Source: an uncultured Candidatus Saccharibacteria bacterium
Lineage (GTDB): Bacteria > Patescibacteriota > Saccharimonadia > Saccharimonadales > JACDBH01
Reading direction: 5' to 3'
Length of the DNA: 64,000 nucleotides
Assembly: GCA_964644965.1 (NCBI GenBank)
Contig: CAZXYN010000003.1
Location: 35,742 to 99,741 of the forward strand
The notes under the pieces are model-generated. The model was not told the DNA's origin, made no database searches, and worked only from the letters and a program-made list of their open reading frames with translations. The translations under genes and the position numbers were made by a program. This document shows, piece by piece, positions 30,243 through 48,519 of the stretch; position 1 is the first letter of the stretch, and each line of letters begins with the position of its first letter.

Positions 30243-33200
30243 GTACAGCTACCACCGCCTCCGCCACTATCGCCGCTCGTATCAAGCCCCTGCTTAACTT
30301 CGTTGCTAAAGTGTGTGCCCTGGCGTAGCCTAAACTCAGGCAACACCTGATTTGTCGTGTAGTTAACGGTAATATCACTGATAGTGCTCCCGTTTTCAGG
30401 GGCACTGGCTCTATATGTATCATCAATCGTCAGCCTAACCCACACGTACTGGGCGGTTTCGTTGATAGTATACCCGCTACCCGAAACAGCATTCGCTACC
30501 ACTGTGCTGGCACTAAATTCATCTGAACAAGCAGCTTTATATTCAAGTGTAAACTGGCCGCCACTACCAGTAAAACTAAGTGTCGATATTTCTCTAACTG
30601 ACCCCAGGTCTACTAGTTTGGAGTAAGTGCTCTTACGGGGTGCGGAGTTTATGGTGGCATAGTTGACTTCAGAAGAGGCTTCATTGGGGTTCCAGCCACC
30701 TACCTGGTACATATAGCCGTTATAGAATAGCATCTCTGCCGCGTCTCGGTTGTTGGGCAAGTTCACGGTCCGATTCCATTCACTGAGGTAACCATTAGGG
30801 GTAAAGGATGCGTACTCCACAATATTATAGTTAGTACAGCAACCACTATAGCCACCCGCAATGTAAAGCCTGCCATCGTATAAGCCTATCGCACTGTCGC
30901 CCCGTCGCACACCAGCATAGCGACTGATTGGCTCCCAAGAACCAATGGTACCGTTGGGGTTGGGGGTAGCTCGGTAAATAATGTTAACAAATGTATCTTC
31001 CCAGTCATCAAATCCGACAAGATAGAAGTACCCATCATGCTGCAGCAGTTCCTGTCCAGAACATGATTCCTGCGGCATAGCGGTGGTCGTGTTCCAGGAA
31101 CCAAGTGTGCCGTTGGAGTTTATCGGTGCATAGTATATTGCGGTAAAACAATCTGGCCACACCCAGCCGCCGGCGGCATATATGTAACCATTATAGACAA
31201 GAGCTGAAGGCTTGTGCCGATGACCGCCAGGTATAGTTGTTGTGGTACTCCACGACCCAATTGTTCCATTAGAATTTATTGGAGCGTATAACACTACTCC
31301 TGCTTGCGCTAAGTTTAGGCCACCTACTACATATACATAATTATTATTAACGGCTACACCACTTTGTGATTGCGGAAATGGCAGGCTTGTGGTTGCACTC
31401 CAGCTACCGAGAGTACCATTGGAGTTTATCGGTGCATAGTTGACATCTGTTCTCATGTCACCAAAATTATTCTCGCCACCTATCTGATACATATAGCCGT
31501 TGTGTACAAATGCAGAAAATTGAACAACAGGAGTTGGTAGCGCTGTAGTAGTGCCGTAGCTGCCTGTCGTACCAGGCCCACCACTGTTGATCCTGGCGTA
31601 CTGGGTAGTATTTTGATAACTTCCCGTGTAGCCCCCTGCAATATACATAAAGCCATTGTATGCAACCGCCCCTAAACGTCTGTTTACGCTCGACAGTGAA
31701 GTTGTGCTCGACCAGCTGCCAAGGGTACCATCGCTATTAACCCGTGCGAATTGTACTGTATTTACACTACCGCCTTCAGTTCCCCCCAGCACATATAGAT
31801 ACCCGTTATATATCGTAGCAGCATGGTCTCTTCGCGCAGCCGTCAGACCAGTAGTACTTGTCCAACCCCCGAGGGTGCCGTTACTATTTACTGTTGCGTA
31901 CTCAACTGTGCTGATATTAGTGGCACCTGCTGTTGCTGTTCCACCAAGTACATATATTTTGCCATCATAAGCTACAGATGCATGTGCTCTCCTAGCACTC
32001 GATAGAGCAGTTGTAGTAGCCCAAGTCCCAAGCGTACCGTCAGTATTAAGCTGCGCATACTCTACCGTCGAGAAATCATTCAACGAAGTATCACTACCGC
32101 CTATAGCATACAGATACCCGTTTGCAACTACGGCTGTATGCCAACGCCTAGCCGTATTAAGGCTATTCATTGCCGACCAGGAACCTAGAGTGCCATTACC
32201 GGTGTTTATAACGGAGCGACTTACTGTCACGATGTCCGAGCTGCCGTTATAGCCACCAATAACATACATCCGGCCGTTGTAGGCAACAGCAGCGTGGCTC
32301 CGAAGCGTCGAAGGCAGATTGGTTGTAGAGTTCCATGTGCCAAGAGTCCCGTCATTATTTATAGCCGCGTATCTGGTCGTATTTACACTATTCGTACCAT
32401 CTGATGACCCGCCCAAGACATACAGATATCCGTTGTAGGCCACTGTCGTATGGTCATATCTACCAGTATTAAAGGTCGTGCCTGCGGTATAACCCGAGGT
32501 GACTCCAGCCGGATGTATAGCCGCATAAACAACTGTAGTGGTTGCTGGGTAGTTAGTGCCTAGTGTATACAGATAGCCGTTGTAGGCTACCGAAGCGTGA
32601 TCCTGGCGTAAGCCACCGGAGAAGTTGACGCTGCTGGCTGTCCAAGCACCAAGCGTACCGTTGGCGTTAATAAGAGCGTATTCGCTGCCCTGACCGCTGC
32701 TAGAACTGCTAACACCACCTATAGCGTACAGGTAGCCGTTATGAACTACGGCGGCATGCTCCGATCGGTAGCTCGACACCATGCTCGGACCGGCTGTCCA
32801 GGAGCTAAGGGTGCCGTCAGAGTTAATCTTGGCATATTCAGTGGTATTGATGTTAGTGCTGCCGTTATTGCCGCCGATGGCGTATATATATCCATTGTAG
32901 ACTACGGCGGCATGATTAACGCGAATCGTACCCAGGCTAGCAGTCGAGGTCCAGCTGCCAAGCGTACCGTCGGCTTTGATAGGTGCAAAGTTAACCGATG
33001 TACTGGCCTGTTCCGGCCAAGGCAAAAACCCGCCAATGGCGTATATATATCCATTGTAGGCGACGGCTTCATGGAAGTTTCTAGTACCCGGCATGCTGGT
33101 AGTAGTCTGCCAGGAGCCGAGGGTACCGTTGGGGTTAATCTTGGCGTATTCGACACTAGACAACTCAGTACTCCAGTATGTCTGAAAGCCGCCAATGGCG

Positions 33201-34525
33201 TATATATATCCATTGTAGGCGACGGCATCAAACTGAGACCGGCCGATAGTCATGCTACTGGTAGCCGTCCAGGAGCCGAGGGTACCGTTACTATTGATTG
33301 GCGCGTATTGGACATCATCGAACGCCGGCGTGTCGTAGTTGCCATTAGTAGATCCGCCAATAATATACATGTAGCCGTTGTAGGCGACGGCTTCAGTATA
33401 AGAGCGAGCAGTGGCGAAACTAGAGGTGGCAGTCCAAGCTCCAAAACTCCCGCCACTAGCATCGGCTCTACGGATGGCGCCACTATCGTAAACAATGTTA
33501 TTGTCTTCACTATTGCCCTCAGTAAAATCTTCTGTGCTTGTCACCACCACACTCGGGTCGATACTAAGTGGGTAGTTTGCCTTTGATAGATTACGCGTAT
33601 GTACAGTCAGCACCCCGTCTTCGTAGCTAAAATACCCTGCCGATTTCTCGCTTTCTACAACCTGCCCTTCTACTGTTTCGTAGATCACGGGCTTAGGAAT
33701 TACAAATGCCAAGTGGGTTTTATCACCATTTTGACGGGCGGCCTCTACCTTCTCTCTATCTGCGTCTGACCCAAAGCTTATCGAGCCAAACAGCGTAGGA
33801 TCAGCCGAATACACCCCAAGCGATCCGTCGTCTAGTATTTTTGCCTGCAGACTGCCGGGTAACTCAAGATCATAGCCAAACTCCATCTCATCATTCACAA
33901 ATTCAGACAAGAGAATGTCCTCTTTCACACCGTTGCTTTTGAGTGTGTAGATGAGATGGGCATCGTCGTAACCCTTGAGCGGAAACACCACATGGCCGCC
34001 TGATTGCTGACCTTTGTGGGCAGAAAATCGTGGGGTTAATGTAAACGAAATTTCGAGCTGGGTGTCGTAGTAGGTCGCCCCTTTCTTAGGATCTCTAGAA
34101 ATAGAAGCGCCGTAAAGCAGCTCGTTGTCTTCCGCACCGCCGCCAACTTTTGCCTGGAGCTGCTCAATTGGATCTCCGCTCATTGAACCGATTGACTCGG
34201 CGTTGAATACATAGGCGTTTTCTTTTGAATCCAGTGTCAGCTTCTTATCGTAGCCCGCCGCCGGATCGCCAACCAGCGACCAGAGCGAATCAGAAAGCTT
34301 ATAGTCCACCCTGTTTTTGACAATCAAATACAGAGGTACCACCAGTGTCGCCAGGAACACTGCGGCTATACCGCCTGCCGCAAACCGCTGGCGGGTGGTG
34401 CGAAGATTGCGTTTAAAAAACCACTTCGCCTTCACCCGCGTGACCCGGAACGTGCGCTTGATTCGTCTTGTGACTTTTGCAGACTTCATATCTGTTTTTC
34501 GTCTCTTCCCTTTAGCTAAAAGCAT
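30239..34525 (-). CDS. Giant membrane-anchored Kelch-repeat protein (18 blades)
   Basis: 1,428 aa. Basic N-terminus plus TM (FAAGGIAAVFLATLVVPLYLIV). There are 18 copies of the x(Y/H)NGYhYxhGG signature, most followed by Y(A)xINS(N/D)GTLGSW; the blades span ~30650-33463. A unique ~290-aa N-domain and a ~130-aa C-terminal domain end in GDSGGGGGSCT. The start could alternatively be MKSAKV at 34489. Confidence 0.85.
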   Translation of the reverse strand: MLLAKGKRRKTDMKSAKVTRRIKRTFRVTRVKAKWFFKRNLRTTRQRFAAGGIAAVFLATLVVPLYLIVKNRVDYKLSDSLWSLVGDPAAGYDKKLTLDSKENAYVFNAESIGSMSGDPIEQLQAKVGGGAEDNELLYGASISRDPKKGATYYDTQLEISFTLTPRFSAHKGQQSGGHVVFPLKGYDDAHLIYTLKSNGVKEDILLSEFVNDEMEFGYDLELPGSLQAKILDDGSLGVYSADPTLFGSISFGSDADREKVEAARQNGDKTHLAFVIPKPVIYETVEGQVVESEKSAGYFSYEDGVLTVHTRNLSKANYPLSIDPSVVVTSTEDFTEGNSEDNNIVYDSGAIRRADASGGSFGAWTATSSFATARSYTEAVAYNGYMYIIGGSTNGNYDTPAFDDVQYAPINSNGTLGSWTATSSMTIGRSQFDAVAYNGYIYAIGGFQTYWSTELSSVEYAKINPNGTLGSWQTTTSMPGTRNFHEAVAYNGYIYAIGGFLPWPEQASTSVNFAPIKADGTLGSWTSTASLGTIRVNHAAVVYNGYIYAIGGNNGSTNINTTEYAKINSDGTLSSWTAGPSMVSSYRSEHAAVVHNGYLYAIGGVSSSSSGQGSEYALINANGTLGAWTASSVNFSGGLRQDHASVAYNGYLYTLGTNYPATTTVVYAAIHPAGVTSGYTAGTTFNTGRYDHTTVAYNGYLYVLGGSSDGTNSVNTTRYAAINNDGTLGTWNSTTNLPSTLRSHAAVAYNGRMYVIGGYNGSSDIVTVSRSVINTGNGTLGSWSAMNSLNTARRWHTAVVANGYLYAIGGSDTSLNDFSTVEYAQLNTDGTLGTWATTTALSSARRAHASVAYDGKIYVLGGTATAGATNISTVEYATVNSNGTLGGWTSTTGLTAARRDHAATIYNGYLYVLGGTEGGSVNTVQFARVNSDGTLGSWSSTTSLSSVNRRLGAVAYNGFMYIAGGYTGSYQNTTQYARINSGGPGTTGSYGTTTALPTPVVQFSAFVHNGYMYQIGGENNFGDMRTDVNYAPINSNGTLGSWSATTSLPFPQSQSGVAVNNNYVYVVGGLNLAQAGVVLYAPINSNGTIGSWSTTTTIPGGHRHKPSALVYNGYIYAAGGWVWPDCFTAIYYAPINSNGTLGSWNTTTAMPQESCSGQELLQHDGYFYLVGFDDWEDTFVNIIYRATPNPNGTIGSWEPISRYAGVRRGDSAIGLYDGRLYIAGGYSGCCTNYNIVEYASFTPNGYLSEWNRTVNLPNNRDAAEMLFYNGYMYQVGGWNPNEASSEVNYATINSAPRKSTYSKLVDLGSVREISTLSFTGSGGQFTLEYKAACSDEFSASTVVANAVSGSGYTINETAQYVWVRLTIDDTYRASAPENGSTISDITVNYTTNQVLPEFRLRQGTHFSNEVKQGLDTSGDSGGGGGSCT

Positions 34526-34566
34526 AACAGAAATAACATCTTTCGGCTATAGAATTTACCCCTGTG

Positions 34567-37500
34567 TTAGAATTTTGCAAAGTACTGGAAGGTTATATCT
34601 CCCGCCCGGGCAAAGTTACCATTAGTCGCCGTCACCTTGACCCGGAAGGTAATGATGTCGCCGGCAGCTATCGTACAGCTTGATTCATTACCTGTTAGCT
34701 GAGTGAACGTCCAGGTAGTATTGGTTGTCGAGCTATTGGTTGTCGAGCCACATTGTGTTCCATCTTCCTCAAATACTGCCAGCTCTACGCTGTCACTGCC
34801 TGTTGTGCGCCAGCCATACATGCCAAGTGTCGTATCTGATACCATGCCGTCAAAGTCGCTCGGTACCTGGTAGCGAATGTAGATATCGTAATCTTGGGCA
34901 GTGCCCTGGCTGGTTGTCCAGCCGTAATAGCTGAATTCTTCTGTTGCGCCACAGATAGTATTGTTTATGTTGCGCTTTGAGCTACCAGAACAGAAGTCGC
35001 TGGTCATAGTACCAAGGTTACTACTGCCATCGGCTGTAATCGTTGCTCCCATGTACTCAGGCGTAAACGTGACGCGCTTGGTTGGTCTACTTGTACCAAA
35101 GAACTCTATTGGTGAGCCGGCAGTTAGTCTAATACCGTTAGTTACGTCACCGACAATCAGCTCAGTATCTACAGTCAAATCACCAGTTACCGTTAGGTCT
35201 CCGTCGACATCTAGTGTGGCCGTGATTGTTATTGTATCTGTAGTTGTATCTACGTTTAGCAGTGTATCGTCACTTGAGTTCTGGATTCGGAATGCTGTTG
35301 TAGTGTCAGATGCATTACCGAACAGTGCTGCGCCAGTAAATGTCTTCGCCCCTGCAAGTGTCTGGGCAGATGTGCTGACCATACCAGGGTTGGTTTCATC
35401 AGCCGGGCCAAAGGTAATGGTGTTGCCAGATATGGTTGCGCCGTTTGTCTGTGAGCTGCCAGAGAAGGTAGCCACGGTAGTGACGCCCGTGCCAGGATCG
35501 CCGCTTCCCCCACCAGCCTTCAGTACAAAGCCGCCCCACATAGACGAACCATGACCATAACTGTTACTGACATTGAATTCCAGGTCTGTAGAGGTAGTGC
35601 CGGTTCGGAAGTATATTTCGGAATCTACACCACAGCAGCTAGTGAACATACTAGACCAGCCCGATGGCACCGCTAAGTCGCTGCCGCCACCATCATGATC
35701 TTCACCTATAGCCAGAATTACCCAGTCAGCTTCATTAGGTGTAGCACCAACGGTTTCACTGCCTGATTTGGTACCACTAAATGTTCCACTGACAAAACCG
35801 TCTACCGGTGTATCCTGGTCTACGCCAGAGAACTCACTGACAGAGATTTGATACTTATAAATGTTAAGTGATCCGGCATCGGCTACGATTTGCATGTTTG
35901 ATGGTGGTGAATCACCAACCACGGCATAGAAACTGCGGTAGGCAAGATCCCAGTCCTGGACAAAGCGCACACCGCCAATCGGCTGCCAGCTCAGGCTGCC
36001 GCCGGCTATGGTTAGGTCGGTTGCTCCGGCTGCGGGCGTACCGCCACCGCTGTTAACAGCCACTAACACTTGTGCGATTAGTACTGTACCTGCTTCTGGC
36101 GTAAAGGTTGAGCCGGCATTGAAGCTACCTGTTCCGTGGCTATCAGAGCTGGCTGCCTCAACCCGGCTTGTGCGGTTGATTTCTCCTGGCCCCTCTATTT
36201 CTGGCGGTGAGTAAATACAATCTTTCCACTCTCCGCCCTCATAGCAGCGGAATTTTCCAAGACTACTATTGTAATACATGGCGCCGTTTGTACCTGTTGG
36301 ATCACCGCTATTAGTTTTGGTATCGAGGACAAGCAGGGTACCGGTGGTGTCAGATTCACCAACTACTAGCCGGTTATTCGTCGTATCTATAGTGAATAGA
36401 CTTATACTTGAGCTGTTCTGAACACGGAAAGCAGTGGTAGAGTTGGTCGTGTTCTGGAACAGAGCACCACCGCCATCAGCTACCGTCATTACACCAGTGC
36501 CATTATCTTGCAGCTGAAGTATGTTGCCGGTAGACGTACCACTGTTGACGATCAGACCAATGGTCGTACCAGACACAGCATCAACATGCAGCCGAGCGCC
36601 GGTGGTTGTAGTGCCGATGCCGACATTGCCGGTGCTACCCTGGATTATCATCTTGGTGCTAAGGTTACGGAGTGTGGCGCCAGTTGCTCCGGCATTGGAG
36701 GTCTGGAATAAGATATCTCCACCAGCGGCAGAGCCAGTACCCCGTCCACCAGCAAGTGTTAGGTTTGCTCCCTGTATATCCGTGCCACTCCCGCCCGTGG
36801 CGTTGAGAGTGAAGTTGGCGGGAGCTGCATTGGTAACACCGTTACCGAAGTAGGCATTGTTAATAGCGGCAGTACTGGAGCCAATGACAAGCTGGTTGTT
36901 ACCCGTTGTTGTGGCGCCATAGCCAAGGGCAACGGAATACAGGTTACTGGCAGAGGCACTCCTTCCAAGTGCAGTGGAGTAGTTCCCTGCTGCGGCGCTT
37001 TGCCCCAGTACGGTTGAGTGAAAGCCCCCCGTTGAGCTTGATCCGATAACAACACTGTTCGAACTGGAAGCACTAGCACTATTGCCAATAAGAATAGTAT
37101 TACTATTGGAGGCTGAGGTGCTGCTACCAATAGCGATTCCGCCAGAGCTTGACACTAGGGCTCCCACACCTAGGGCAATACCAGAGGAACTGGCGCTCGC
37201 ACCAGACCCAATGACAACGGATGAATCCCCGTTCGCATCAGCATTCGTACCAATAGCAGTTGCATTAAAGCCACTTGCGGTTGCGCTGTAGCCAATTGCA
37301 AGCGTATTAGTATTGCTTGCGTTCGCACCGGCCCCGAACTGCTCACTGTTCGTACCGGTACCAGGTACAGAGATGCTGGCACCGTTGCTACCCTGGAGCA
37401 CACCAGCTGTTGTCAGGGTGAAGTAAGTAGTGTTGTTGGTCTCAAGATTCAATGCATAGTTATCATTGGTACCGATAGTAATAGCACCGCCATCAGTATT

Positions 37501-40170
37501 TCCGCCATTCATAATGTCGCCAGTTGCAGTCACACCACTAATACAGTCTTTCCATTCGCCGTCTTCATAACAGCGGAACTTACCAAGACTACTATTGTAG
37601 TACATTCCACCGTCTACACCTGTTGGATCACCAGAGTCTGCTTTGGTGTCAAGCACCAGAAGCTTGCCAGTGCCATTACCTATAGTAACTCCACCGCTGA
37701 GAGCAGTGTCACCTGTTACCTCTAGATTGCCGCTTATTGTGATAGTACCGCTTGCTTGGGTAATGATAGAGTCACCTATCTTGTTGCCCGCGCCAAATAC
37801 CGGGATGGTTCCGGGAGTGCTGTGGCCAATCCAGTTGATTTCTATGTAACCATCTCCAGTATGCTGGCCTTCATGTGCTCCACCTAATGGTATGAGCGAT
37901 GAGCCGCCGCCACCGCCGCCAGCACCGTTACAACCAGCGCCACAGGCACTACCACCGCCGCCGCCATAAACGCCGCCACCGCCACCGCCGCCTCTTCTTG
38001 GATTATTGTATCCACCGTTACCGCCCTGACCTAATGAGCCGGTGCCCCCACCAGCGCCAACAGTAGCTCCAGCCCCACCAGCCCCACCATTAGCACTAGC
38101 GGTGCCTGCTACTCCATTTGGATTACCTGCTGCACCACCGTTGCCCGGACCAGCACCACCAAAGCCGCCACCGCCACCACCGCCAGCGACGACTACACGA
38201 TTACCTAGTGCATTGGCGCCTTGACGTATATCAGTCGCACCGCCACCGCCACCGCCACTAGCACCAGGATTGCCTGAGTTACCACCACCATTCCAACCAC
38301 CGTTGCCATTTGGTGCAGTACCTCCGACATAAATATAGAGTGTTTCACCCGGTGTAACGGGTATTGTGGCGCTTACTATCGCACCTGCGCCACCAGCAGC
38401 ATCGCCTGCGCCACCAGAACCCCCTGCCGCTCTAATGCTTAGTTCCGTAATACCAGCAGGAACAACAAAGGTTTGCTGGGTACCGGTATAGCTAAAGCTC
38501 TGATTGCCACCTGAAGCGCTACCCCCCGTTAAGACCAATGCCCCCGAGGAATCAGGCAACTCGTACGTACGATCAGCCGTGATGCTGCTGGCCTGCAGTG
38601 TAGCTACAAACGCATTGGTAGCATTAAGCAGCTTGAGCATACCGTCTACAGTCTCTGATTCGCCAATGGTTAGGTTGCCGCCCTGGATGCGCATACCCTG
38701 GATAGATACTTCCTTATCTATATTGAGCCTATTACTAGAAGTATCATAGCTGATAGTAGCGTCATTGCCGTGTTCACCAATATGCAAACTGGATGAGCCT
38801 AAGTATAGATCGCGCCAGCGTATAGATGACGAACCTAAGTCATAAGTATTATCAGCACCGGGCAAGAAGTGACCATCTGTATCAAACAGCGCCCGTGTAA
38901 CCCCGTTTGTCTCAAAGTTCAGCGCATACTCGTCGTTCGTACCGATAGTAATAGCACCGCCATCAGTGTTTCCGCCGTTCATAATGTCACCAGTTGCAGT
39001 CACTCCACTGATACAGTCTTTCCAGCTGCCGCCTTCATAGCAGCGGAACTTACCAGCATTGGAGTTGTAGTACATGCCGCCGTTCTGGCCAGTTGGATCA
39101 CCGCTGTTGGTTTTGGTGTCGAGGACGAGCAGGCTGCCGGTAGTGTCGGAGGTACCGATACTAAGATTGCGGTTTATGTGGACTCCTGTCCAGTCAACCA
39201 TGAGCTCACCGCCGTTTGCAGCAATCTCTAGTTCATCATTGTCGTTATCGAAGACTATTCTGTTTGCGCCACTATTATCAAAGTATAGTTCTGATGAGCT
39301 TGATGCACCTGGGTTTAGGGTAATATTGACACCGCCGGTAGCATCACCAATCTGCAGATCTACGCCTGATAAGATTGAATTCGTGTTGATACCAACCCTT
39401 TCATTATCGCTATCAACAAGTAGAACCGTACTTGTTCCACCTGCGTCCTGGACCCTAAATGCAGTCGTCGAATTGTTTCGGATAGTCGTACTACCGTTAT
39501 TTGAAATCGTAAATACATCAGTGCCACTAGATTGCAGCTGCAACAAACCGCCAGCACCGGTTTGGTTAAGACGGATCGCAGAGTTGGCAGAGTTTATACC
39601 CTGCAAGGAGCCCGGAGCTGTTTGTACAAAATCATTGGTAGTAAAGTTGTTTGTTCCATCTGTCAGCGCACTTGCCTTGTCTGCCTGGAAGGCATGTGGC
39701 ACAGCCGTCAGCAGCAGTCTTGGGCTCATTTCGCCGTCCCAGCTTGGTGAGCCGGTTCCACCGATGTTCATACTCAGCCAGAGCTGCTCGCCCCACTGAA
39801 TCGTGCCCGGGAATGCAGAAACCGAGCCAAGACTTACAGTCATGTAGCCATTGGCAACCCGGACAGTGTTGCCGCCGGTTCGAGTCTCTGTCCAGAGACA
39901 GTTGGCATCACCACTGCAGCTACCTTGTGACGAGGTTCCAGAGGTAGACGCACTGTACAGTTTGAATTCCACATTGTAGTAGCCATCTGGCACGACAGCC
40001 CCAGAACCAGTCTTGAGCCGTGCCTGGAAGTTCAGGAAAGTACTTGGCGCAGCCGTGGCTGTAGGTGTTATTTGTCTCGAGATGCTTATGGCGGTAAGTA
40101 ATATCAAACCAAACACCAGCAACAGGGTGCGAAATACGGTACTTAACCGGTAGGTGTTATTTTTGGTCAT
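34567..40170 (-). CDS. Giant membrane-anchored mosaic fibre/adhesin-like protein
   Basis: 1,867 aa. N-terminal anchor TVFRTLLLVFGLILLTAISI. It carries three copies of a two-Cys module, a Gly-rich domain (~aa 556-781, nt 37828-38505), Ser/Ala/Gly-rich YadA-head-like repeats (~aa 941-1100, nt 36871-37350), and beta-helix-like TTAFRVQN segments. It lies 41 nt upstream of the Kelch gene. Confidence 0.85.
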   Translation of the reverse strand: MTKNNTYRLSTVFRTLLLVFGLILLTAISISRQITPTATAAPSTFLNFQARLKTGSGAVVPDGYYNVEFKLYSASTSGTSSQGSCSGDANCLWTETRTGGNTVRVANGYMTVSLGSVSAFPGTIQWGEQLWLSMNIGGTGSPSWDGEMSPRLLLTAVPHAFQADKASALTDGTNNFTTNDFVQTAPGSLQGINSANSAIRLNQTGAGGLLQLQSSGTDVFTISNNGSTTIRNNSTTAFRVQDAGGTSTVLLVDSDNERVGINTNSILSGVDLQIGDATGGVNITLNPGASSSSELYFDNSGANRIVFDNDNDELEIAANGGELMVDWTGVHINRNLSIGTSDTTGSLLVLDTKTNSGDPTGQNGGMYYNSNAGKFRCYEGGSWKDCISGVTATGDIMNGGNTDGGAITIGTNDEYALNFETNGVTRALFDTDGHFLPGADNTYDLGSSSIRWRDLYLGSSSLHIGEHGNDATISYDTSSNRLNIDKEVSIQGMRIQGGNLTIGESETVDGMLKLLNATNAFVATLQASSITADRTYELPDSSGALVLTGGSASGGNQSFSYTGTQQTFVVPAGITELSIRAAGGSGGAGDAAGGAGAIVSATIPVTPGETLYIYVGGTAPNGNGGWNGGGNSGNPGASGGGGGGATDIRQGANALGNRVVVAGGGGGGGFGGAGPGNGGAAGNPNGVAGTASANGGAGGAGATVGAGGGTGSLGQGGNGGYNNPRRGGGGGGGVYGGGGGSACGAGCNGAGGGGGGSSLIPLGGAHEGQHTGDGYIEINWIGHSTPGTIPVFGAGNKIGDSIITQASGTITISGNLEVTGDTALSGGVTIGNGTGKLLVLDTKADSGDPTGVDGGMYYNSSLGKFRCYEDGEWKDCISGVTATGDIMNGGNTDGGAITIGTNDNYALNLETNNTTYFTLTTAGVLQGSNGASISVPGTGTNSEQFGAGANASNTNTLAIGYSATASGFNATAIGTNADANGDSSVVIGSGASASSSGIALGVGALVSSSGGIAIGSSTSASNSNTILIGNSASASSSNSVVIGSSSTGGFHSTVLGQSAAAGNYSTALGRSASASNLYSVALGYGATTTGNNQLVIGSSTAAINNAYFGNGVTNAAPANFTLNATGGSGTDIQGANLTLAGGRGTGSAAGGDILFQTSNAGATGATLRNLSTKMIIQGSTGNVGIGTTTTGARLHVDAVSGTTIGLIVNSGTSTGNILQLQDNGTGVMTVADGGGALFQNTTNSTTAFRVQNSSSISLFTIDTTNNRLVVGESDTTGTLLVLDTKTNSGDPTGTNGAMYYNSSLGKFRCYEGGEWKDCIYSPPEIEGPGEINRTSRVEAASSDSHGTGSFNAGSTFTPEAGTVLIAQVLVAVNSGGGTPAAGATDLTIAGGSLSWQPIGGVRFVQDWDLAYRSFYAVVGDSPPSNMQIVADAGSLNIYKYQISVSEFSGVDQDTPVDGFVSGTFSGTKSGSETVGATPNEADWVILAIGEDHDGGGSDLAVPSGWSSMFTSCCGVDSEIYFRTGTTSTDLEFNVSNSYGHGSSMWGGFVLKAGGGSGDPGTGVTTVATFSGSSQTNGATISGNTITFGPADETNPGMVSTSAQTLAGAKTFTGAALFGNASDTTTAFRIQNSSDDTLLNVDTTTDTITITATLDVDGDLTVTGDLTVDTELIVGDVTNGIRLTAGSPIEFFGTSRPTKRVTFTPEYMGATITADGSSNLGTMTSDFCSGSSKRNINNTICGATEEFSYYGWTTSQGTAQDYDIYIRYQVPSDFDGMVSDTTLGMYGWRTTGSDSVELAVFEEDGTQCGSTTNSSTTNTTWTFTQLTGNESSCTIAAGDIITFRVKVTATNGNFARAGDITFQYFAKF
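36214..36336 (-). repeat. Two-cysteine module, copy 3 (aa 1279-1319)
   Basis: LLVLDTKTNSGDPTGTNGAMYYNSSLGKFRCYEGGEWKDCI. Confidence 0.85.
37540..37662 (-). repeat. Two-cysteine module, copy 2 (aa 837-877)
   Basis: LLVLDTKADSGDPTGVDGGMYYNSSLGKFRCYEDGEWKDCI. As in copy 1, it is followed by the near-identical SGVTATGDIMNGGNTDGGAITIGTND. Confidence 0.85.
39010..39132 (-). repeat. Two-cysteine module, copy 1 (aa 347-387 of the 1,867-aa protein)
   Basis: LLVLDTKTNSGDPTGQNGGMYYNSNAGKFRCYEGGSWKDCI. Confidence 0.85.
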
Positions 40171-41315: not shown

Positions 41316-44255
41316 TTATTGTAACACCTGCTCTGCTGCCTTTTCCAATTCAATGTGCAGCTTCTTACCTTCGATAACTGCCTCTGTAGCGTGAGGCAGA
41401 TCCCTCGACGCATCTAGAAGCTCTACAGCAAGCGTTTCGGCGCAAATTGTGCCTGAGTGCTCTTCTATAGCTTTCTTAAGCTCTGGGTCATCTGTTACAA
41501 GAACCAGTTGGATCCTATCATCAACCTGTAAATCTGCTTGCTTGCGGGCATTTTGCACGTTCCTGACAGTCTCTCGCATTAGTCCCTCGCGTTTGAGCTC
41601 CGAAGTAATTTTTGTGTCAAGAGATACGGCATGTTCACCGCCTTGAGCATTAAACTTAACCGACTTCACATTTAGCTCTTCTTTGAGAATCGCCTCATAT
41701 TCTGCTTCCATCTCATCTAAGTACTGCGGCCCACCCTCTATCTGAAGACTGCTGAGTGGCTGACGCACCTTGATACCAGCTGCTGCCCGCTGGCTAAGAC
41801 CTTCGTTAATGACGTCGCGTATATAGCCCATCTTATCTATCGACAACTCGTTTACATGCCCGGCAGGCAACCAATCCTTGAGATGGACTGATTCTTTGTC
41901 GCCTGTAAGCTTGCTGTAAAGCTCCTCGGCTAGGAACGGTGTAAATGGCGCCAGAACGTAAGCCAGACGCACAAGAACGTAGTGCAGCGTGCGGTAAGCC
42001 ATCTGTTTATCGCCATCGTCCTCGCTCTTCCAGAAACGGCGGCGAGATCTACGCACATACCAGTTACTAGCGTCATCCAGGAACGGCAAGATTGGGCTAA
42101 CCGCGTCTGGAATATTGTAGCCGTCCATATGTTTTTCTACCTCACCAACCAGCTGATGTAGCCGCGAAATAATCCATGTGTCTAGCGGATTACCCAAACT
42201 TGTAAACTCCCCATCTGTAAAAGGCCAGGCCTTTTTATTTTCTATCGGGTCTATGAGGTTGCCATCGTATTCCCAATCATCGGCCTCTGCATAGAGCGTG
42301 AAGAAATCATACATGTTCCAAACCATACTAAGTTTGCGCGCCACATCGCCGACTTCCTTGTCCTGTAGCGCAAAATCTTCGCCATTGAGCAGAGGGCTCG
42401 AAAGCAGTAAAAATCGCAGGCTATCAGCCGAGAATTTGTCCATGAGCTCGTTCGGGTCGGTGTAGTTGCCGTAGCTTTTGCTCATCTTGCGGCCGTCGTT
42501 ACCGGCAACATTGCCAGTCACAATTACATTCTTGAAGCTATTCTCACCAAATAGCGCCACGCTCATAGCGTGCATGTAGTAAAACCACGCTCGCACCTGA
42601 CCGATGTATTCTACGATGAAATCACCAGGGAAATTTTCCTCGAACTTTTCTTTGTTCTCGAATGGGTAATGGAATTGAGCGAACGGCATTGAACCTGCCT
42701 CAAACCAACTGTCGATGACTTTGTCAATACGGGTGTACTCTTCATTATCGATGGTAAATTTGACGTCATCAACCCACGGGCGGTGATAATCGGGCAGCTC
42801 TACTCCGCTGAGTTGCTTGAGCTCGGCATAGCTTCCCACTACCTTCACCTTGCCCGATTCAGATTTCCAAACAGGCATAGCCGTCGCCCAGAAACGATCG
42901 CGGCTTATATTCCAATCTGGAGCTTGTTCAATAGTTTTGGCAAAACGACCGTTTTTTACATGGCTAGGAAACCATTCTATATCGCCATTCTGTCGCAGCA
43001 TCTGCTCGCGCTGGCTATCAATATCCATAAACCAGCTAGGGTGCGCACGGTACATAAGCCGCGTACCACAGCGGTGACAGTGCGGGTAACTATGACGATA
43101 GTAATCTATCTTCCAGACAATTCCTTTCTCTTTGAGGGCCTTGGCGATAGGCTTGTTGGCTTCCCAGACGTTTTGGCTTTGCCATTCACCCTCTGTGTAG
43201 TAGCCGTTTTCGTCAATCACATGCACGACGGGTATTTTCTTTTCCTGCGCCAATGCAAAATCTTCTTCACCGTAGGCTGGTGCCAGATGTACAATTCCGG
43301 TTCCGCTGTCTGTTGACACATAGTCCGCATGCCAAACTTTGTGAGCGTTTTCACCGCGATTTTCACCCAACAGTGGCTGATACGACAGGCCAACTAAGTC
43401 ACTACCTTTGAGTTCATTCAGTACTTCATAATAAAGCAGCTCGTGCTTTTCATTTGTCAGGACTTTTTCTACTAGATCCTTAGCTAGAATGAATGTTTCA
43501 TCAGCCACCGACACTTCCACATAATCTATGTCGTTATGTACTGCTACCGCAGTGTTTGCCGGCAAAGTCCATGGCGTCGTAGTCCAGGCTAGCAGGCTGC
43601 GACCGTCTTCTAGTCTGAACTTTGTATATACACTTGGGTCGGTCACATCCTGGTAGGCACCGGCGTCCATAGTGACTTCTGCCTTTGATAGCGGCGTGGC
43701 ATCGAGCGTACAGTACATCAGTACCTTTTCGCCCTCGTAGATCTTGCCCTTTTCGTGCAAGGTTTTGAATGCCCACCAGATAGATTCCATATAATCACGG
43801 TCCATGGTCTTGTAAGCGCCCCGGAAATCAACCCAGCGGCCGATACGATCAACCACGTCTTCCCACTCACTACTGGTCTGCACCATGTTGTTACGGCACG
43901 CGATGATGTATTTTTCTATTCCGTATTCTATGACTTCTTCCCGCGAGCTAAGACCAAGCTTTGTCTCTGTATAGCGTTCTGCTGGCAGGCCATGACAATC
44001 CCAACCCCAGACACGCTCTACCCGCTTGCCTTTCATCGTCTGGTAGCGCGGCACCGCGTCCTTTACGATAGAGCTCAGTAGTGTACCGTGGTGTGGCACA
44101 CCAGAAATAAACGGCGGCCCATCGTAGAATACATAGCTATTCTCGGCCGAGCGGTTCTCGACTGATTTTTCGAATGTCTTGTCTTGTTTCCAACGCTGCA
44201 CCCAGTCTTTTTCGTATTCTATGGCACGGCGTCTGGTATTTGCCCTAAACTTCAC
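41316..44255 (-). CDS. ileS: Isoleucyl-tRNA synthetase (type 2-like)
   Basis: HIGH-region variant PHHGTLLS and KMSKS (RKMSKSYGN). I place the start at GTG 44255 (VKFRANT...), preceded by AAAGGAG (44270-44264). The track ATG at 44327 lies inside the T-box sequence (see the next feature). Confidence 0.95.
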   Translation of the reverse strand: MKFRANTRRRAIEYEKDWVQRWKQDKTFEKSVENRSAENSYVFYDGPPFISGVPHHGTLLSSIVKDAVPRYQTMKGKRVERVWGWDCHGLPAERYTETKLGLSSREEVIEYGIEKYIIACRNNMVQTSSEWEDVVDRIGRWVDFRGAYKTMDRDYMESIWWAFKTLHEKGKIYEGEKVLMYCTLDATPLSKAEVTMDAGAYQDVTDPSVYTKFRLEDGRSLLAWTTTPWTLPANTAVAVHNDIDYVEVSVADETFILAKDLVEKVLTNEKHELLYYEVLNELKGSDLVGLSYQPLLGENRGENAHKVWHADYVSTDSGTGIVHLAPAYGEEDFALAQEKKIPVVHVIDENGYYTEGEWQSQNVWEANKPIAKALKEKGIVWKIDYYRHSYPHCHRCGTRLMYRAHPSWFMDIDSQREQMLRQNGDIEWFPSHVKNGRFAKTIEQAPDWNISRDRFWATAMPVWKSESGKVKVVGSYAELKQLSGVELPDYHRPWVDDVKFTIDNEEYTRIDKVIDSWFEAGSMPFAQFHYPFENKEKFEENFPGDFIVEYIGQVRAWFYYMHAMSVALFGENSFKNVIVTGNVAGNDGRKMSKSYGNYTDPNELMDKFSADSLRFLLLSSPLLNGEDFALQDKEVGDVARKLSMVWNMYDFFTLYAEADDWEYDGNLIDPIENKKAWPFTDGEFTSLGNPLDTWIISRLHQLVGEVEKHMDGYNIPDAVSPILPFLDDASNWYVRRSRRRFWKSEDDGDKQMAYRTLHYVLVRLAYVLAPFTPFLAEELYSKLTGDKESVHLKDWLPAGHVNELSIDKMGYIRDVINEGLSQRAAAGIKVRQPLSSLQIEGGPQYLDEMEAEYEAILKEELNVKSVKFNAQGGEHAVSLDTKITSELKREGLMRETVRNVQNARKQADLQVDDRIQLVLVTDDPELKKAIEEHSGTICAETLAVELLDASRDLPHATEAVIEGKKLHIELEKAAEQVLQ

Positions 44256-44479
44256 TGTGTTTTCTCCTTTGAAAAACAAAAATCCCTTTTTAGCGACTGG
44301 AACTCCCTGTTCAGCGAGCGATACCATCCAGTTTCCAAAAAGAGATTCCTTTTTAGCACTTATTTTGCCTGGTTACGGAGGCTCCGGCGGGTTCTAGTTG
44401 GGTATTAGCCCTTTCTTCCTGCTCCTCGTGGTTGATAGCCACTCTTCGCTATACAGATAGTCTATACAGCGAACGGATT
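44256..44479 (-). promoter_or_regulatory. T-box leader (Ile specifier) upstream of ileS
   Basis: The minus strand carries three elements. (a) Hairpin GUGG-CUAUCAA-CCAC presents AUC+A (AUC at 44436-44434). (b) T-box-like AACUGGAUGGUAUCGC has UGGU at 44326-44323. (c) An antiterminator-type fold has helix CUGGA/UCCAG enclosing the 7-nt bulge UGGUAUC and inner helix GCUC/GAGU. These are followed by a U-rich tract and the SD. Confidence 0.7.
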
Positions 44480-44485
44480 AGTTAA

Positions 44486-44514
44486 AGTTTATCTCTGTTA
44501 CCAAAAAAACACAA
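44486..44514 (-). promoter_or_regulatory. Candidate promoter of the ileS T-box leader
   Basis: Minus strand reads TTGTGT (44514-44509), a 17-nt spacer, then TAAACT (44491-44486). Confidence 0.45.
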
Positions 44515-44564: not shown

Positions 44565-45026
44565 ATGGCTCATAAATCCGCTATTGTATACATCCTAAAG
44601 GCGCTTATTCCTTACTCTAGGGAAAACTTGAATCTCGCGTTCAAGCCCAATAGATTCTTTGATGAGCTTGAACGTACTTCTGGTCAAAAGCGTAAAACAC
44701 TGCAAACCGCCTACTATCGAGCTCATAACGAAGGCTTAATCCAGAATCAAAACGTACTAACCCTTACTGGCTGGGAGAAGGTTCTGCCCTTCGTCGCCAA
44801 AACCTTACAGAAGGATGTCGTCCTGATGGTTATATTCGACATACCAGAGGATTCAGCCCCACTTAGGCGTGAATTGCGAGGCTTTCTGAGGCGTCTAGAT
44901 TTTATCCAAGAGCAGCAAAGTGTATGGGTAAGCAGCTTTGACTACACCAGGTATGTTGAGGAATATGTTAAAAATAAATCACTACAGAACTACGTCCAAG
45001 TATACGAAGCAGCTCGCATATGTTAA
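44565..45026 (+). CDS. PaaX-like / Cas2-fold-like putative regulator
   Basis: 153 aa. The C-terminal half VVLMVIFDIPEDSAPLRRELRGFLRRLDFIQEQQSVWVSSFD matches the 'FDIPE...R..LR..L..LGF..LQ.SVW' pattern of PaaX-C/Cas2-like ferredoxin folds. The N-terminal half is wHTH-like. TATAAT (44553-44558) lies 6 nt upstream of the ATG. Confidence 0.6.
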   Translation: MAHKSAIVYILKALIPYSRENLNLAFKPNRFFDELERTSGQKRKTLQTAYYRAHNEGLIQNQNVLTLTGWEKVLPFVAKTLQKDVVLMVIFDIPEDSAPLRRELRGFLRRLDFIQEQQSVWVSSFDYTRYVEEYVKNKSLQNYVQVYEAARIC

Positions 45027-45753: not shown

Positions 45754-48519
45754 TTAAGAGCAGCCGGTGGTACTACCGCAGCTGGCACAGACATAGCAGC
45801 TACCTGCCTTTTGCGTCTGGTTGCCACAGTTGTAGCACATCGGTGCTGCCGGGTCAGCTACAGATTCTGTTGTCTTCTCTGCAACCACTACAGGAGCTTT
45901 GACTTCCTGTTGCACTGGTTGTTTCTGAGAAACAGGCTCTGGTGCAATTTGAGCATCGGCACCGAGCAAGCTTGTCTGCTCAGTCGGCATATCATCAATA
46001 CTTGCAAGACCAAGCTCCAATCGATCATCGAATGATAGATACGAAAGCGCCAAACGACGTGCAATGTAGTCTACCAGTGAGCTAGCTGTTCGGATCTCTG
46101 GGTCATCAGTGATACCAGATGGTGCGAAGCTGGTGCTGGTAAATGATTTGACGTAGCTCTTTAGTGGCACACCGTACTGAAGTCCGTGGCTCATGCTGAT
46201 TGCAAAGGCGTCCATGACTCCCCTAAGTGTTGAGCCTTGCTTAGCGATATTCACGAAAATTTCACCAGGTGTTCCGTCCTCGTATTCACCGACAGTGATG
46301 TAGCCGTGGGTACCAGCAACGCTGAATGAGAATGTCTTGGAGTTGCGAACTTTTGGTAGATCGCGGTGGACTGCACCTCGGACAATAATCTTGTCGTTGA
46401 GGCTTTCGACTGTGTCTGCAACTTCTTTGGTGTCGCCTTCCTTTTTGAGCATAGAAAGCGGCTGAGCTACCTTACAGTTGTCTCGGTAAATCGCAACTGC
46501 CTTGAGACCTAGTTTCCATGAATCAATGTGAAGCTGCTCGACGTCTTCGACAGTAACATCTTCTGGCATGTTGACGGTTTTGGAGATAGCACCTGATAGG
46601 AACGGCTGTACGGCACCCATCATTCTTACGTGACCAGAGTAGTGAATCGCGTTGTCGCCCATTGAGCAAGAAAATACTGCTTTGTGCTCGTCTTTTAGGT
46701 GAGGAGCGTCAGTGATTGTCTTCTCTGTGTCGATGTATTTGATGATGTCGTCAGACTGCTTCTTGGTGTAACCTAGGTTCTTGAGCGCCCGCGGGATTGT
46801 CTGGTTTACGATGGTCATATTGCCACCACCAACCAACTTCTTGAACTTCACAAGTCCTAGGTCGGGTTCGATACCGGTGGTGTCACAGTCCATCATGAAA
46901 CCAATTGTTCCTGTTGGGGCAAGTACAGAGGCCTGAGCATTACGAATACCATAGAGCTCACCTAGTTCAACTGCATCGTCCCAAGCGCTGGCAGCAGCGC
47001 TGAGTAGTTCCTCTGGCACAAGACTAGCGTCTATGCCACCAACTGCTTCGCGGTGCATGCGTAGGACATTTAGCATACCGTCGCGGTCTTTGTGAAAGCC
47101 GGCAAACGGACCAACTTGTCGAGCGAGTCGAGCTGACGTAGCGTAGGCGTGACCTGTCATGAGTGCAGTGATGGCTGCAGCCTTGGCGCGGCCTTCGTCA
47201 CTATCGTATGGCAAACCTTGTGCCATAAGCATTGCGCCGAGGTTGGCATAACCAAGTCCAAGCTGGCGGAAAGCACGAGTGTTCTTGGCAATCTTTTCGG
47301 TTGGGTATTCTGAGTAACCAACTAGGATTTCCTGAGCTGTAAACACAACTTCTACGGTGTGCTTGAAGGCTTCGATATCAAAGACATCGTCGTCGTTCAG
47401 GAATTTGAGCAAATTGATACTTGCCAGATTACAAGCTGAGTTGTCGATGTGCATGTACTCTGAGCAAGGGTTCGAACCATTGATTCGACCAGCTACTGGA
47501 GTAGTGTGCCAGCGGTTGATAGTAGTATCAAATTGCATGCCTGGATCTGCACATTCCCATGCGGCTTCTGAAATTTGGCGGAAGATATCACGAGCTTTGA
47601 CCGTTCTTATCGTCTTGCCGTTTGTGACAGCCGTAAGATTCCAATCCTTGTCGTCCTCTACTGCCTGCATGAATTCATCTGTTACGCGTACAGAGTTGTT
47701 AGCGTTCTGATACTGGACGCTAAAGCTGTCTTTGCCATCTAGATCCATATCAAAACCAGCCTGTTGCAATACTCGAGCCTTGCGCTCTTCGATTGCCTTG
47801 GCCCAAATAAACTCTTCGACGTCTGGATGTTGCACGTTCAAGATAACCATCTTGGCTGCACGGCGTGTCTTACCACCGCTCTTGATAGCACCAGCTGATG
47901 CATCGGCACCACGCATGAAGCTTAAGGGTCCACTGGCCGTACCAGCGCTCTTGCCAAGCTTTTCTTGTGATGAACGAATAGCGCTGATGTTAAGACCAGA
48001 ACCCGATCCACCCTTGAAAATCATGCCTTCTTCTTTGTACCAGTTTAGGATTGACGGCATGGTGTCGTCTACTGCCAGAATGAAACAGGCGCTTGCCTGT
48101 TGGGTGCGCTCACTAGCGCCAATGTTGAACCAGACAGGTGAGTTAAACGCAGCTCGTTGCGTTACTAATATCGCCTTTAGTTCTTGGCGGAAATCCTCTG
48201 CCTCTGTATCTGATTCGAAATAACCATCTTGTTGACCCTGGCGTGTGATTGTATCAGCCACACGATCTACTAAGTGTCTTAGTGATGATTCGCGGTCTTT
48301 TGTACCCGGAGTACCTGCAAAGTACTTCTGGGCAACGATGTTGATCGCGTTTAGTGACCAGCCGGCTGGAAATTCCACGCCGCGCTGCTCAAAGACAGGT
48401 TTGTTGGTCATCGGATTATTGATAATGGAATCCGTCTTCACCCATTCAACCTGATCGTATGCTTTTGTTTTCGGCTTTGTAAAGTATCTCTTTACGCCGA
48501 GACCTGTTGCTTGTGCCAT
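45754..48519 (-). CDS. nrdJ: Adenosylcobalamin-dependent ribonucleotide reductase, class II, with C-terminal Cys-rich zinc-finger tail
   Basis: 921 aa. Active-site context NPCSEYMHIDNSACNLASINL. C-terminus CYNCGNQTQKAGSCYVCASCGSTTGCS. Confidence 0.93.
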   Translation of the reverse strand: MAQATGLGVKRYFTKPKTKAYDQVEWVKTDSIINNPMTNKPVFEQRGVEFPAGWSLNAINIVAQKYFAGTPGTKDRESSLRHLVDRVADTITRQGQQDGYFESDTEAEDFRQELKAILVTQRAAFNSPVWFNIGASERTQQASACFILAVDDTMPSILNWYKEEGMIFKGGSGSGLNISAIRSSQEKLGKSAGTASGPLSFMRGADASAGAIKSGGKTRRAAKMVILNVQHPDVEEFIWAKAIEERKARVLQQAGFDMDLDGKDSFSVQYQNANNSVRVTDEFMQAVEDDKDWNLTAVTNGKTIRTVKARDIFRQISEAAWECADPGMQFDTTINRWHTTPVAGRINGSNPCSEYMHIDNSACNLASINLLKFLNDDDVFDIEAFKHTVEVVFTAQEILVGYSEYPTEKIAKNTRAFRQLGLGYANLGAMLMAQGLPYDSDEGRAKAAAITALMTGHAYATSARLARQVGPFAGFHKDRDGMLNVLRMHREAVGGIDASLVPEELLSAAASAWDDAVELGELYGIRNAQASVLAPTGTIGFMMDCDTTGIEPDLGLVKFKKLVGGGNMTIVNQTIPRALKNLGYTKKQSDDIIKYIDTEKTITDAPHLKDEHKAVFSCSMGDNAIHYSGHVRMMGAVQPFLSGAISKTVNMPEDVTVEDVEQLHIDSWKLGLKAVAIYRDNCKVAQPLSMLKKEGDTKEVADTVESLNDKIIVRGAVHRDLPKVRNSKTFSFSVAGTHGYITVGEYEDGTPGEIFVNIAKQGSTLRGVMDAFAISMSHGLQYGVPLKSYVKSFTSTSFAPSGITDDPEIRTASSLVDYIARRLALSYLSFDDRLELGLASIDDMPTEQTSLLGADAQIAPEPVSQKQPVQQEVKAPVVVAEKTTESVADPAAPMCYNCGNQTQKAGSCYVCASCGSTTGCS

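Follow-up and report, generated by a model that had tools for sequence, protein, structure and literature searches.

A probable T-box riboswitch with a transcriptional expression platform upstream of ileS in Saccharibacteria

Described T-box classes and the ileS leader

The closest described systems are the ileS T-boxes of Actinobacteria (M. tuberculosis and M. smegmatis; TBDB class II). They share the specifier AUC. Their expression platform is translational and consists of an SD-sequestering hairpin, without terminators (PMC1262725). In M. tuberculosis, Stem I of the ileS leader holds a K-turn, and the S-turn is needed for tRNA binding (PMC10651847). A charged-tRNA mimic can still pair with the bulge of this leader, yet it undocks the GAG linker and displaces Stem III, which stays coaxially stacked when the tRNA is uncharged (PMC12647780).

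In class I T-boxes (B. subtilis tyrS and glyQS; RF00230), Stem I is long, its specifier loop is internal, and a platform of interdigitated T-loops stacks on the tRNA elbow. The 3’ strands of their A1 and A2 helices become the 5’ strand of the terminator (PMC7583486). The T-box discriminator contains the motif 5’-RRRxG - Stem III - AA-3’ (PMC7583486, PMC11297988), together with A1, a 7-nucleotide bulge with UGGN at its 5’ edge, and A2 with a basal G.U pair (PMC7583486). When Stem III is removed, the antiterminator binds tRNA poorly (reviewed in PMC7583486). Published T-box distributions comprise Firmicutes, Actinobacteria, Chloroflexi, Deinococcus-Thermus, and a few Proteobacteria.

The leader described here is approximately 208 nucleotides in length and is located between a divergent 153-aa ORF and ileS. 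It was found in a 64-kb window, which is the whole stretch of DNA that was analysed. An earlier note, made from the letters of the window, had described a promoter, a leader with several hairpins, and a T-box-like sequence upstream of ileS. The hairpins, helices, and bulge are all present on the minus strand at the places described, as is the T-box-like sequence AACUGGAUGGUAUCGC. The features are listed in Table 1; the S-turn, the IIA/B pseudoknot, and the RAG-Stem III-AA motif are additions to that description.

Table 1. Features of the ileS leader and its surroundings, in window coordinates
Feature	Position	Strand	Details
Putative promoter	44486..44514	-	TTGTGT 44514-09, 17-nt spacer, TAAACT 44491-86; read from sequence
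Leader	44479-44272	-
Stem I base	44423..44477	-	Proposed basal helix UCC 44477-75 / GGA 44425-23
GA flanks	GA 44444-43 and GA 44427-26	-	Flank distal Stem I; K-turn-like arrangement proposed
Inserted 13-bp hairpin	44473-44445	-	Lineage-specific, at bulge position of the proposed K-turn
Distal Stem I	44428..44442	-	GUGG-CUAUCAA-CCAC; AUC 44436-34 at loop positions 3-5, then A
Stem II	44387..44422	-	Lower helix GCAGG/CCCGC; S-turn strands AAGAAA and AACUAGAA; apical hairpin GGG-CUAAUA-CCC
IIA/B pseudoknot (H-type)	44367..44386	-	IIA CGG 44386-84 / CCG 44378-76
IIB of pseudoknot	44382-79 / 44370-67	-	Loop GCCU pairs with AGGC
Discriminator 5’ half	44333..44361	-	AAGUG (RAG) 44361-57, Stem III, then AA 44334-33
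Stem III	44356-44335	-	CUAAAAAGG-AAUC-UCUUUUUGG; proposed antiterminator
T-box hairpin	44296..44332	-	A1 ACUGGA/UCCAGU 44332-27 / 44301-296
T-box bulge UGGUAUC	44326-20	-	7 nt; UGGU should pair with tRNA 3’ ACCA
A2 GCUC/GAGU	44319-16 / 44305-02	-	G.U pair at base
Terminator 3’ strand CUAAAAAGGGAU	44293-82	-	Pairs with AUCUCUUUUUGG 44346-35 (Stem III loop and 3’ strand)
U-tract UUUUUGUUUUU	44281-72	-	Directly after terminator 3’ strand; terminator part spans 44272..44293
ileS, including SD	41316..44268	-	SD AGGAG 44268-64; GTG start 44255; type-2 IleRS, 979 aa

The downstream gene matches TIGR00392 with 792 bits, which agrees with its earlier reading as ileS. The nearest solved structure to the encoded IleRS is P. 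megaterium IleRS2 (8c8v, 712 bits); no actinobacterial IleRS was found among the PDB structures searched. The GTG at 44255 aligns with the M/V-K-F-K/R-A-N starts of ileS in relatives and, by this alignment, is read as the true start. Gene callers place the start wrongly, inside the T-box leader.

The proposed promoter has the hexamers and the spacing reported earlier. It is weak by the E. coli consensus, and a simple promoter scan did not flag it because its -35 box matches at only 3/6 positions. The predicted transcription start (approximately 44479) coincides with the point where conservation of the leader begins. Compared with shuffled sequences, the leader has a more stable fold (z = -2.7), and its extent was adjusted to approximately 44479 to 44272. 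Many leaders of relatives have good -10 boxes (TATAAT, TATACT, TAAAAT) at the equivalent spot, as judged by eye, and these boxes adjoin the 5’ side of a conserved AGACGU/AAUCCGU.

A protein-guided scan of species-representative genomes gave 80 ileS loci. Close relatives account for 74 of these (63-83% amino-acid identity), nearly all labelled Saccharibacteria, and the best 120 matches of a large IleRS protein search are from Saccharibacteria only. The suggestion that the window comes from a CPR organism is thus borne out by its relatives. The sequence UGGUAYC is located 56-160 nucleotides upstream of ileS in 42 close-relative loci.

A covariance model (R1) of the 3’ domain of the leader was built from 25 seed sequences, the window included. 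It matches the 64-kb window once (86.6 bits, E 2.5e-17, the window being a seed) and matches 68/68 loci with usable upstream sequence, always upstream of ileS and on the ileS strand. Non-seed loci score 85-91 bits, as high as the seeds. Taken with the fold of the leader, these matches lie far outside what chance would give. The 12 loci without a match comprise six that are 5’-truncated or have no upstream sequence and six from outside Saccharibacteria. The window and the 68 related loci make up the 69 leaders compared below.

No Rfam family was detected by cmscan at the gathering threshold in the whole 64-kb window, and no T-box in 18 related loci. RF00230, which had been named in advance as a test that could refute the T-box reading, gave no match even at E<=10 on a 601-nucleotide region. 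Formally this test failed. It is not a valid one, and the null is not counted against the element, because RF00230 models long-Stem-I class I T-boxes. It serves the class I transcriptional T-boxes, and class II ileS leaders needed a custom TBDB model, which was run only on Actinobacteria and class I hits (PMC7778990). Conservation in related genomes, another test named in advance, gave a positive result: 69/69 leaders carry the specifier, and UGGUAYC does not vary in the bulge.

Stems I and II and the discriminator

In Stem I, the specifier loop directly caps a 4-bp helix with no element distal to it, and there is neither an internal specifier loop nor an elbow platform. The AUC triplet lies in the terminal loop, as had been read for the window, in all 69 leaders (64 located automatically and five by eye). 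The loop is 7 nucleotides in length (YYAUCNN) in 67 leaders and 8-9 nucleotides in L039 and L058. The base after AUC is A in 66 of the 69. The distal helix covaries between leaders (GUGG/CCAC, GCGG/CCGC, GUGA/UCAC, ACGG/CCGU).

The specifier loop has the geometry of an anticodon loop but the sequence of a codon, and therefore complements tRNA-Ile(GAU) without mimicking it. Bacterial tRNA-Ile normally has a GAU anticodon and A73. The specifier AUC predicts a GAU anticodon, and the U of the bulge predicts an A73 discriminator, in the tRNA-Ile of these organisms. No tRNA-Ile gene was detected by ARAGORN in the 64-kb window or in 60 related loci. A second AUC, in the loop of Stem III (GAAUCUC), was considered as another specifier and rejected; it is the complement of the GAU ahead of the U-tract.

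The base of Stem I is less uniform. Distal Stem I has GA or AA on its 5’ side in 58/65 leaders and on its 3’ side in 63/65. Pairing of the basal triplet occurs at the predicted register in 33/65 leaders, compared with 8-18/65 at slid registers. A ‘longest helix’ test of the base gave no separation between real (5.7) and shuffled (5.8) sequences. The basal helix is moderately supported and, with the GA/GA flanks, is consistent with a K-turn at the base of Stem I like that of M. tuberculosis ileS. The 13-bp hairpin inserted at the bulge position of this motif contains two G.U pairs, and its pairing is therefore placed at the RNA level. Other genomes have different hairpins, or none, at this position.

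Both helices of Stem II were recovered by unguided RNAalifold with many compensatory pairs. Across 31 leaders, UAGA is invariant and G-AAGAA is nearly so; these belong to the S-turn strands G-AAGAA / AGUAGA. We take the AGUA/GAA pattern to be a classic S-turn. The IIA/B pseudoknot was located by a per-sequence search, with a mean score of 10.5 against 5.2 in shuffles, and IIB has at least 4 bp in 37/60 sequences. The IIB partners covary widely (CGCU/AGCG, CCAG/CUGG, GAGU/ACUC, GUGA/UCAC, and others). The Stem II S-turn and IIA/B are T-box features outside the glycine T-boxes, and both are present in these leaders.

The discriminator follows the pseudoknot. In its 5’ half, the positions G9, A32, and A33 of the alignment named A2 are invariant, and AGxG and AA show little or no variation in 25 aligned leaders. 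Stem III is 91.7% paired in a MAFFT alignment, with 7/9 pairs compensatory, and 94.4% paired in the 69-sequence model alignment, with 9/9 compensatory. A1 is 100% paired (4/6 pairs compensatory) and A2 is 98% paired (4/4 compensatory). The window carries UGGUAUC, and not UGGUACC, as its variant of the invariant UGGUAYC bulge. The basal pair of A2, which as G.U serves T-boxes as the steric sensor of a 3’-aminoacyl group, is G.U in 26 of the 69 leaders, the window among them, U-A in 22, A-U in 11, and G-C in 6. The T-box reading proposed earlier, with its antiterminator-type fold (CUGGA/UCCAG, UGGUAUC, GCUC/GAGU), is supported by the covariation of A1, A2, and Stem I across leaders.

The likeness to the short-Stem-I ileS class of Actinobacteria, drawn in the earlier note, is supported by these comparative data. 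The two share the target gene ileS, a short Stem I without an elbow-binding distal platform, a basal K-turn (putative in these leaders), a Stem II S-turn, IIA/B, a RAG/GAG linker, Stem III, A1/A2, and the UGGN bulge. This comparison, the platform included, rests on published descriptions of the actinobacterial class. The Saccharibacteria leaders differ from it in having a U-tract terminator and no conserved SD sequestration, in an OFF helix that borrows Stem III and not A1/A2, and in their phylum (Saccharibacteria/CPR).

Predicted terminator, proposed switch wiring, and rival readings

The expression platform was called ambiguous in the earlier note, and this part was not upheld. Of the three partners then proposed for the segment AAUCUCUUUUUGG, all are present. 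The upstream A-run forms Stem III (the ON pairing), and GCUAAAAAGGGAUU with the following U-run forms the terminator (the OFF pairing). The SD partner is not conserved. A run of at least four U follows the terminator helix in 69/69 leaders, and the expression platform is predicted to be an intrinsic terminator with the SD not sequestered, so that control would be transcriptional and not translational.

The terminator helix has 12-14 bp, encloses the intact A1/bulge/A2 hairpin, and runs into the U-tract. Unguided RNAalifold found this enclosing helix along with Stem I, Stem II, A1, and A2, with 29/36 pairs compensatory. The lower terminator helix is 86% paired (7/10 pairs compensatory). In the plain MAFFT alignment, the whole OFF structure is 92.7% paired with 15/20 pairs compensatory. 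Its pairing is lower at all slid registers, falling to approximately 55% when slid by one column, and 0/500 shuffles reach the OFF value. The ON structure is 95.8% paired in the same alignment (15/19 compensatory) and beats 500/500 shuffles and all slid registers. The OFF fold is more stable than the ON fold in 35/35 leaders by a mean of 9.2 kcal/mol, and in the window the values are -27.9 and -19.0 kcal/mol. A terminator scan of the window flagged none; the scan allows loops of 3-8 nucleotides, and the terminator here encloses a 41-nucleotide bulged hairpin.

The post-A1 strand and Stem III are matched within genomes. The likeness of the Stem III 5’ strand to the post-A1 strand is 0.71 within a genome and 0.63 between genomes, a difference reached in 0/5000 permutations. 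The complementarity of the post-A1 strand to the Stem III 3’ strand (S3:T3) is 0.91 with the strand of its own genome and 0.82 with those of others (0/5000 permutations). Since the 5’ strand of the terminator comes from Stem III (its loop and 3’ strand) and not from the 3’ strands of A1/A2, the bulged T-box hairpin is predicted to stay folded in either state, with Stem III as the proposed antiterminator. Two divergent leaders, L047 and L052, have no Stem III, and their terminator pairs with the RAG-containing linker. What all these leaders have in common, L047 and L052 included, is a terminator in competition for the discriminator’s 5’ flank. The ON and OFF hairpins thus appear to be wired differently from those of described T-boxes.

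The element is probably a T-box riboswitch that senses tRNA-Ile and uses transcription attenuation to control ileS. In the nascent leader, the short, K-turn-based Stem I would offer AUC in its terminal loop to the GAU anticodon. In mycobacterial ileS T-boxes, the contact of three codon-anticodon base pairs is buttressed by the S-turn of Stem II and the IIA/B pseudoknot, and the same would hold here. The discriminator would consist of Stem III with the purines on either side of it (AAGUG ... AA) and of the bulged hairpin A1/A2. The 3’ ACCA of uncharged tRNA would pair with UGGU, and the Stem III module would dock and be locked. The segment transcribed next (CUAAAAAGGGAU) copies the 5’ strand of Stem III, and the much more stable terminator could form only by displacing that strand from the 3’ strand. 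With no tRNA, or with charged tRNA, Stem III would be undocked and invaded and RNA polymerase would stop at the U-tract, so that the default state is OFF. With uncharged tRNA-Ile, Stem III would be protected and ileS transcribed. Since the terminator must invade Stem III, a difference between docked and undocked states, as in M. tuberculosis, would become a decision about transcription. The sequence analysis shows the helices, the two competing pairings, the U-tract, the ranking of the folds by energy, and the conservation in front of ileS; binding of tRNA, sensing of its charge, the conformer that binds it, and termination are inferred.

The pbuE adenine riboswitch is also an ON switch, whose aptamer helix, stabilised by the ligand, competes with the terminator through strand exchange. 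The logic is shared: one strand is common to the helix formed earlier (here Stem III) and to the stronger terminator downstream, and the ligand would protect that helix. Unlike in pbuE, the proposed ligand is a whole tRNA read at two sites, and the protected helix is a peripheral docking module and not the closing helix of a binding pocket.

Class I T-boxes share with the leader the specifier, the UGGN bulge, the discriminator core, a predicted role as an ON switch for uncharged tRNA, and an intrinsic terminator more stable than the ON fold. Their long Stem I, internal specifier loop, and elbow platform are absent here; A1/A2 survive in both states, and RF00230 is blind to the Saccharibacteria element. 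On the expression platform, the element matches neither of the two established sub-classes.

The attenuation reading has points against it. According to reviews, a long Stem I whose elbow-binding platform allows fast capture of tRNA is generally required for transcriptional T-boxes (PMC7583486), and this generalisation counts against attenuation because the leader has no elbow platform. The main caveat concerns the terminator fold: it keeps A1/A2 and the bulge, and tRNA could in principle bind there too. Also entered on this side were the missing RF00230 match, the A2 G.U pair in only 26/69 leaders, the two leaders without Stem III, the poor -35 box, the bulge sequence of the window, and the lack of a tRNA-Ile gene in the examined loci.

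A translational T-box like that of the actinobacterial ileS class would have the same decoding and discriminator core as the M. tuberculosis and M. smegmatis leaders, which belong to a class that acts translationally (PMC1262725). By our own reading of the window, 14/15 positions of an SD-sequestering pairing can form. Yet in the 35 leaders with ileS directly downstream, the full-length ensemble leaves the SD mostly unpaired (mean P = 0.60; 0.58 in the window), and anything between 9 and 32 nucleotides separates the SD from the U-tract. The element is more than 160 nucleotides from ileS in 26/68 loci, and in both of those inspected (L002 and L063) another ORF follows it. The unpaired SD and these distances, together with a U-run right behind a covarying helix in every leader, make a purely translational switch unlikely; an added translational effect could still occur in some genomes. 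The pairing of the discriminator helices also bears on a class I-style switch, in which A1/A2 would be the antiterminator and their 3’ strands would re-pair downstream as the terminator. Such an antiterminator is the mechanism of all characterised transcriptional T-boxes (PMC7583486). It is extremely improbable here: no complement of GGGAGUUCCAGU, the 3’ strands of A1 and A2, was found after A1 in the window, the consensus OFF fold retains A1 (100% paired) and A2 (98%) inside the terminator, and the post-A1 strand complements and co-evolves with the 3’ strand of Stem III instead.

It is very unlikely that the leader does not respond to tRNA at all, being either a protein operator (for example, IleRS autoregulation by means of a hairpin that resembles an anticodon arm, cf. 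E. coli thrS) or the remains of a decayed T-box preceding an attenuator that is constitutive. The 7-nucleotide loop does resemble an anticodon loop, Rfam has no match, and the link to tRNA is drawn from sequence. The loop, however, carries the codon AUC and not the anticodon GAU, and so is no tRNA mimic. The nucleotides by which T-boxes contact tRNA (AUC with its purine, the S-turn, RAG, AA, and UGGU) are invariant or nearly so in 69 genomes. Helices that covary while contact nucleotides stay fixed are the opposite of decay.

Distribution and significance

Full-text searches of an open-access library found no paper that connects T-boxes with Saccharibacteria, Patescibacteria, CPR, or TM7, and none that reports a terminator sharing Stem III. 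We see about an even chance that the leaders represent an unrecognised class of T-box in Saccharibacteria and the first in CPR, where at least one other lineage has a T-box. This class would be transcriptional without an elbow contact, with strand exchange at Stem III or the linker and with A1/bulge/A2 folded throughout. The current annotation resources (Rfam, TBDB) miss it, and it would be among the very few cis-regulatory RNAs identifiable in Saccharibacteria genomes; Rfam finds none in the 64-kb window.

In textbook T-box models, the stacking of tRNA on A1 decides, since A1/A2 donate the terminator strand. In approximately 70 genomes, the competition instead involves Stem III and leaves A1/A2 aside. 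If the reading is correct, the sensing helix and the switching helix have been separated by nature in a T-box. Single-molecule studies of M. tuberculosis ileS have led to the idea that undocking of the linker and Stem III is how charged tRNA is rejected, and the leaders would then put this idea to a natural test. They would give independent support for this docking, and not only A1 stacking, as the step at which aminoacylation is read, and would contradict the general rule that a T-box acting on transcription requires a long Stem I. An ileS switch that reads tRNA-Ile charging would directly sense the supply of host-derived isoleucine. It would also be a native, compact part (approximately 200 nucleotides) for organisms short of inducible expression tools (PMC11665869).

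With filters off, R1 gave a weak match upstream of ileS in a Magasanikiibacteriota genome (L078; 24.3 bits, E 0.005). This leader is judged from its sequence to be a divergent T-box. The element would therefore not be limited to one CPR lineage and would be older or more widespread within CPR, which weakens a simple story of horizontal transfer from an actinobacterial host. Read directly, the L078 leader contains AUC in a 9-nucleotide terminal loop, GAGUAGA, AAGCG, an A1 helix of CAAGA/UCUUG, and a UGGUACC bulge. Its terminator is a stand-alone hairpin followed by U7.

Annotated start of ileS

The publicly annotated protein for the window's ileS (P0001, 1003 aa, 100% identical) begins at an ATG at position 44327. 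In the RNA it is the AUG within GGAUGG, which straddles the junction of helix A1 with the T-box bulge. The true start is the GTG at position 44255, which has an AGGAG Shine-Dalgarno sequence, and 24 codons of the riboswitch are therefore annotated as protein. In Corynebacterium efficiens, Seliverstov et al. 2005 put right the same type of error in the start of ileS.

Features of the window and of related ileS loci
Feature	Sequence	Position	Strand	Detail
Two very large adjacent ORFs	window	30239-40170	-	1428 aa and 1867 aa
Start discrepancy of ileS	window	44256-44327	-	P0001 vs sequence reading
Inserted 13-bp hairpin, base of Stem I	window	44445-44473	-	
ORF divergent from the leader	window	44565-45026	+	153 aa
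NrdJ, B12-dependent ribonucleotide reductase	window	45754-48519	-	1376 bits
Small ORF between T-box and ileS	L002	2070-2504		144-aa protein, very acidic
Small ORF between T-box and ileS	L063	1899-2498		199-aa protein
Divergent ileS T-box	L078	1845-2060		Candidatus Magasanikiibacteriota

Variation in the leader and its distance from ileS

The hairpin inserted in the base of Stem I appears to be a local duplication of 13 nucleotides (ACUAUCUGUAUAG). The closest relative, L001, has just CGCU-GUAU-AGCG in its place, and other genomes have unrelated hairpins, or none, at the same position. By happenstance, AUC is also present in the loop of the inserted hairpin.

Of the 68 related loci, 26 have their T-box more than 160 nucleotides upstream of ileS, with a typical distance of 200-900. 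These include L002, L063, L035, L018, L005, L017, and others, of which L002 and L063 were inspected. In both, the first ORF after the T-box is a small one, so that an operon of two genes would be under riboswitch control there.

The T-box of L078, from another CPR lineage, has AUC within a 9-nucleotide terminal loop, a UGGUACC bulge, and a Stem III (the hairpin 5' of A1) that is tiny or absent. The locus also contains a stand-alone hairpin, CACGAAUAUUUUCGUG, followed by U7. An alternative pairing partner for the 3' strand of this hairpin could be GCGAAAG, which lies 5' of A1. A 117-aa ORF separates the T-box from ileS.

Surrounding genes

The 64-kb window is densely coding. Across its whole length (1-64000), no tRNA genes were found with ARAGORN, no Rfam families were found at the gathering threshold, and no cobalamin riboswitch was detected. 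The divergent ORF had no match in NCBIfam, and the NrdJ gene is the next gene upstream past it. The two very large ORFs lie approximately 1.1 kb downstream of ileS. The sole match of the longer one is a faint (25 bits) similarity to a YadA-type adhesin, and both may encode surface proteins relevant to an epibiotic lifestyle.
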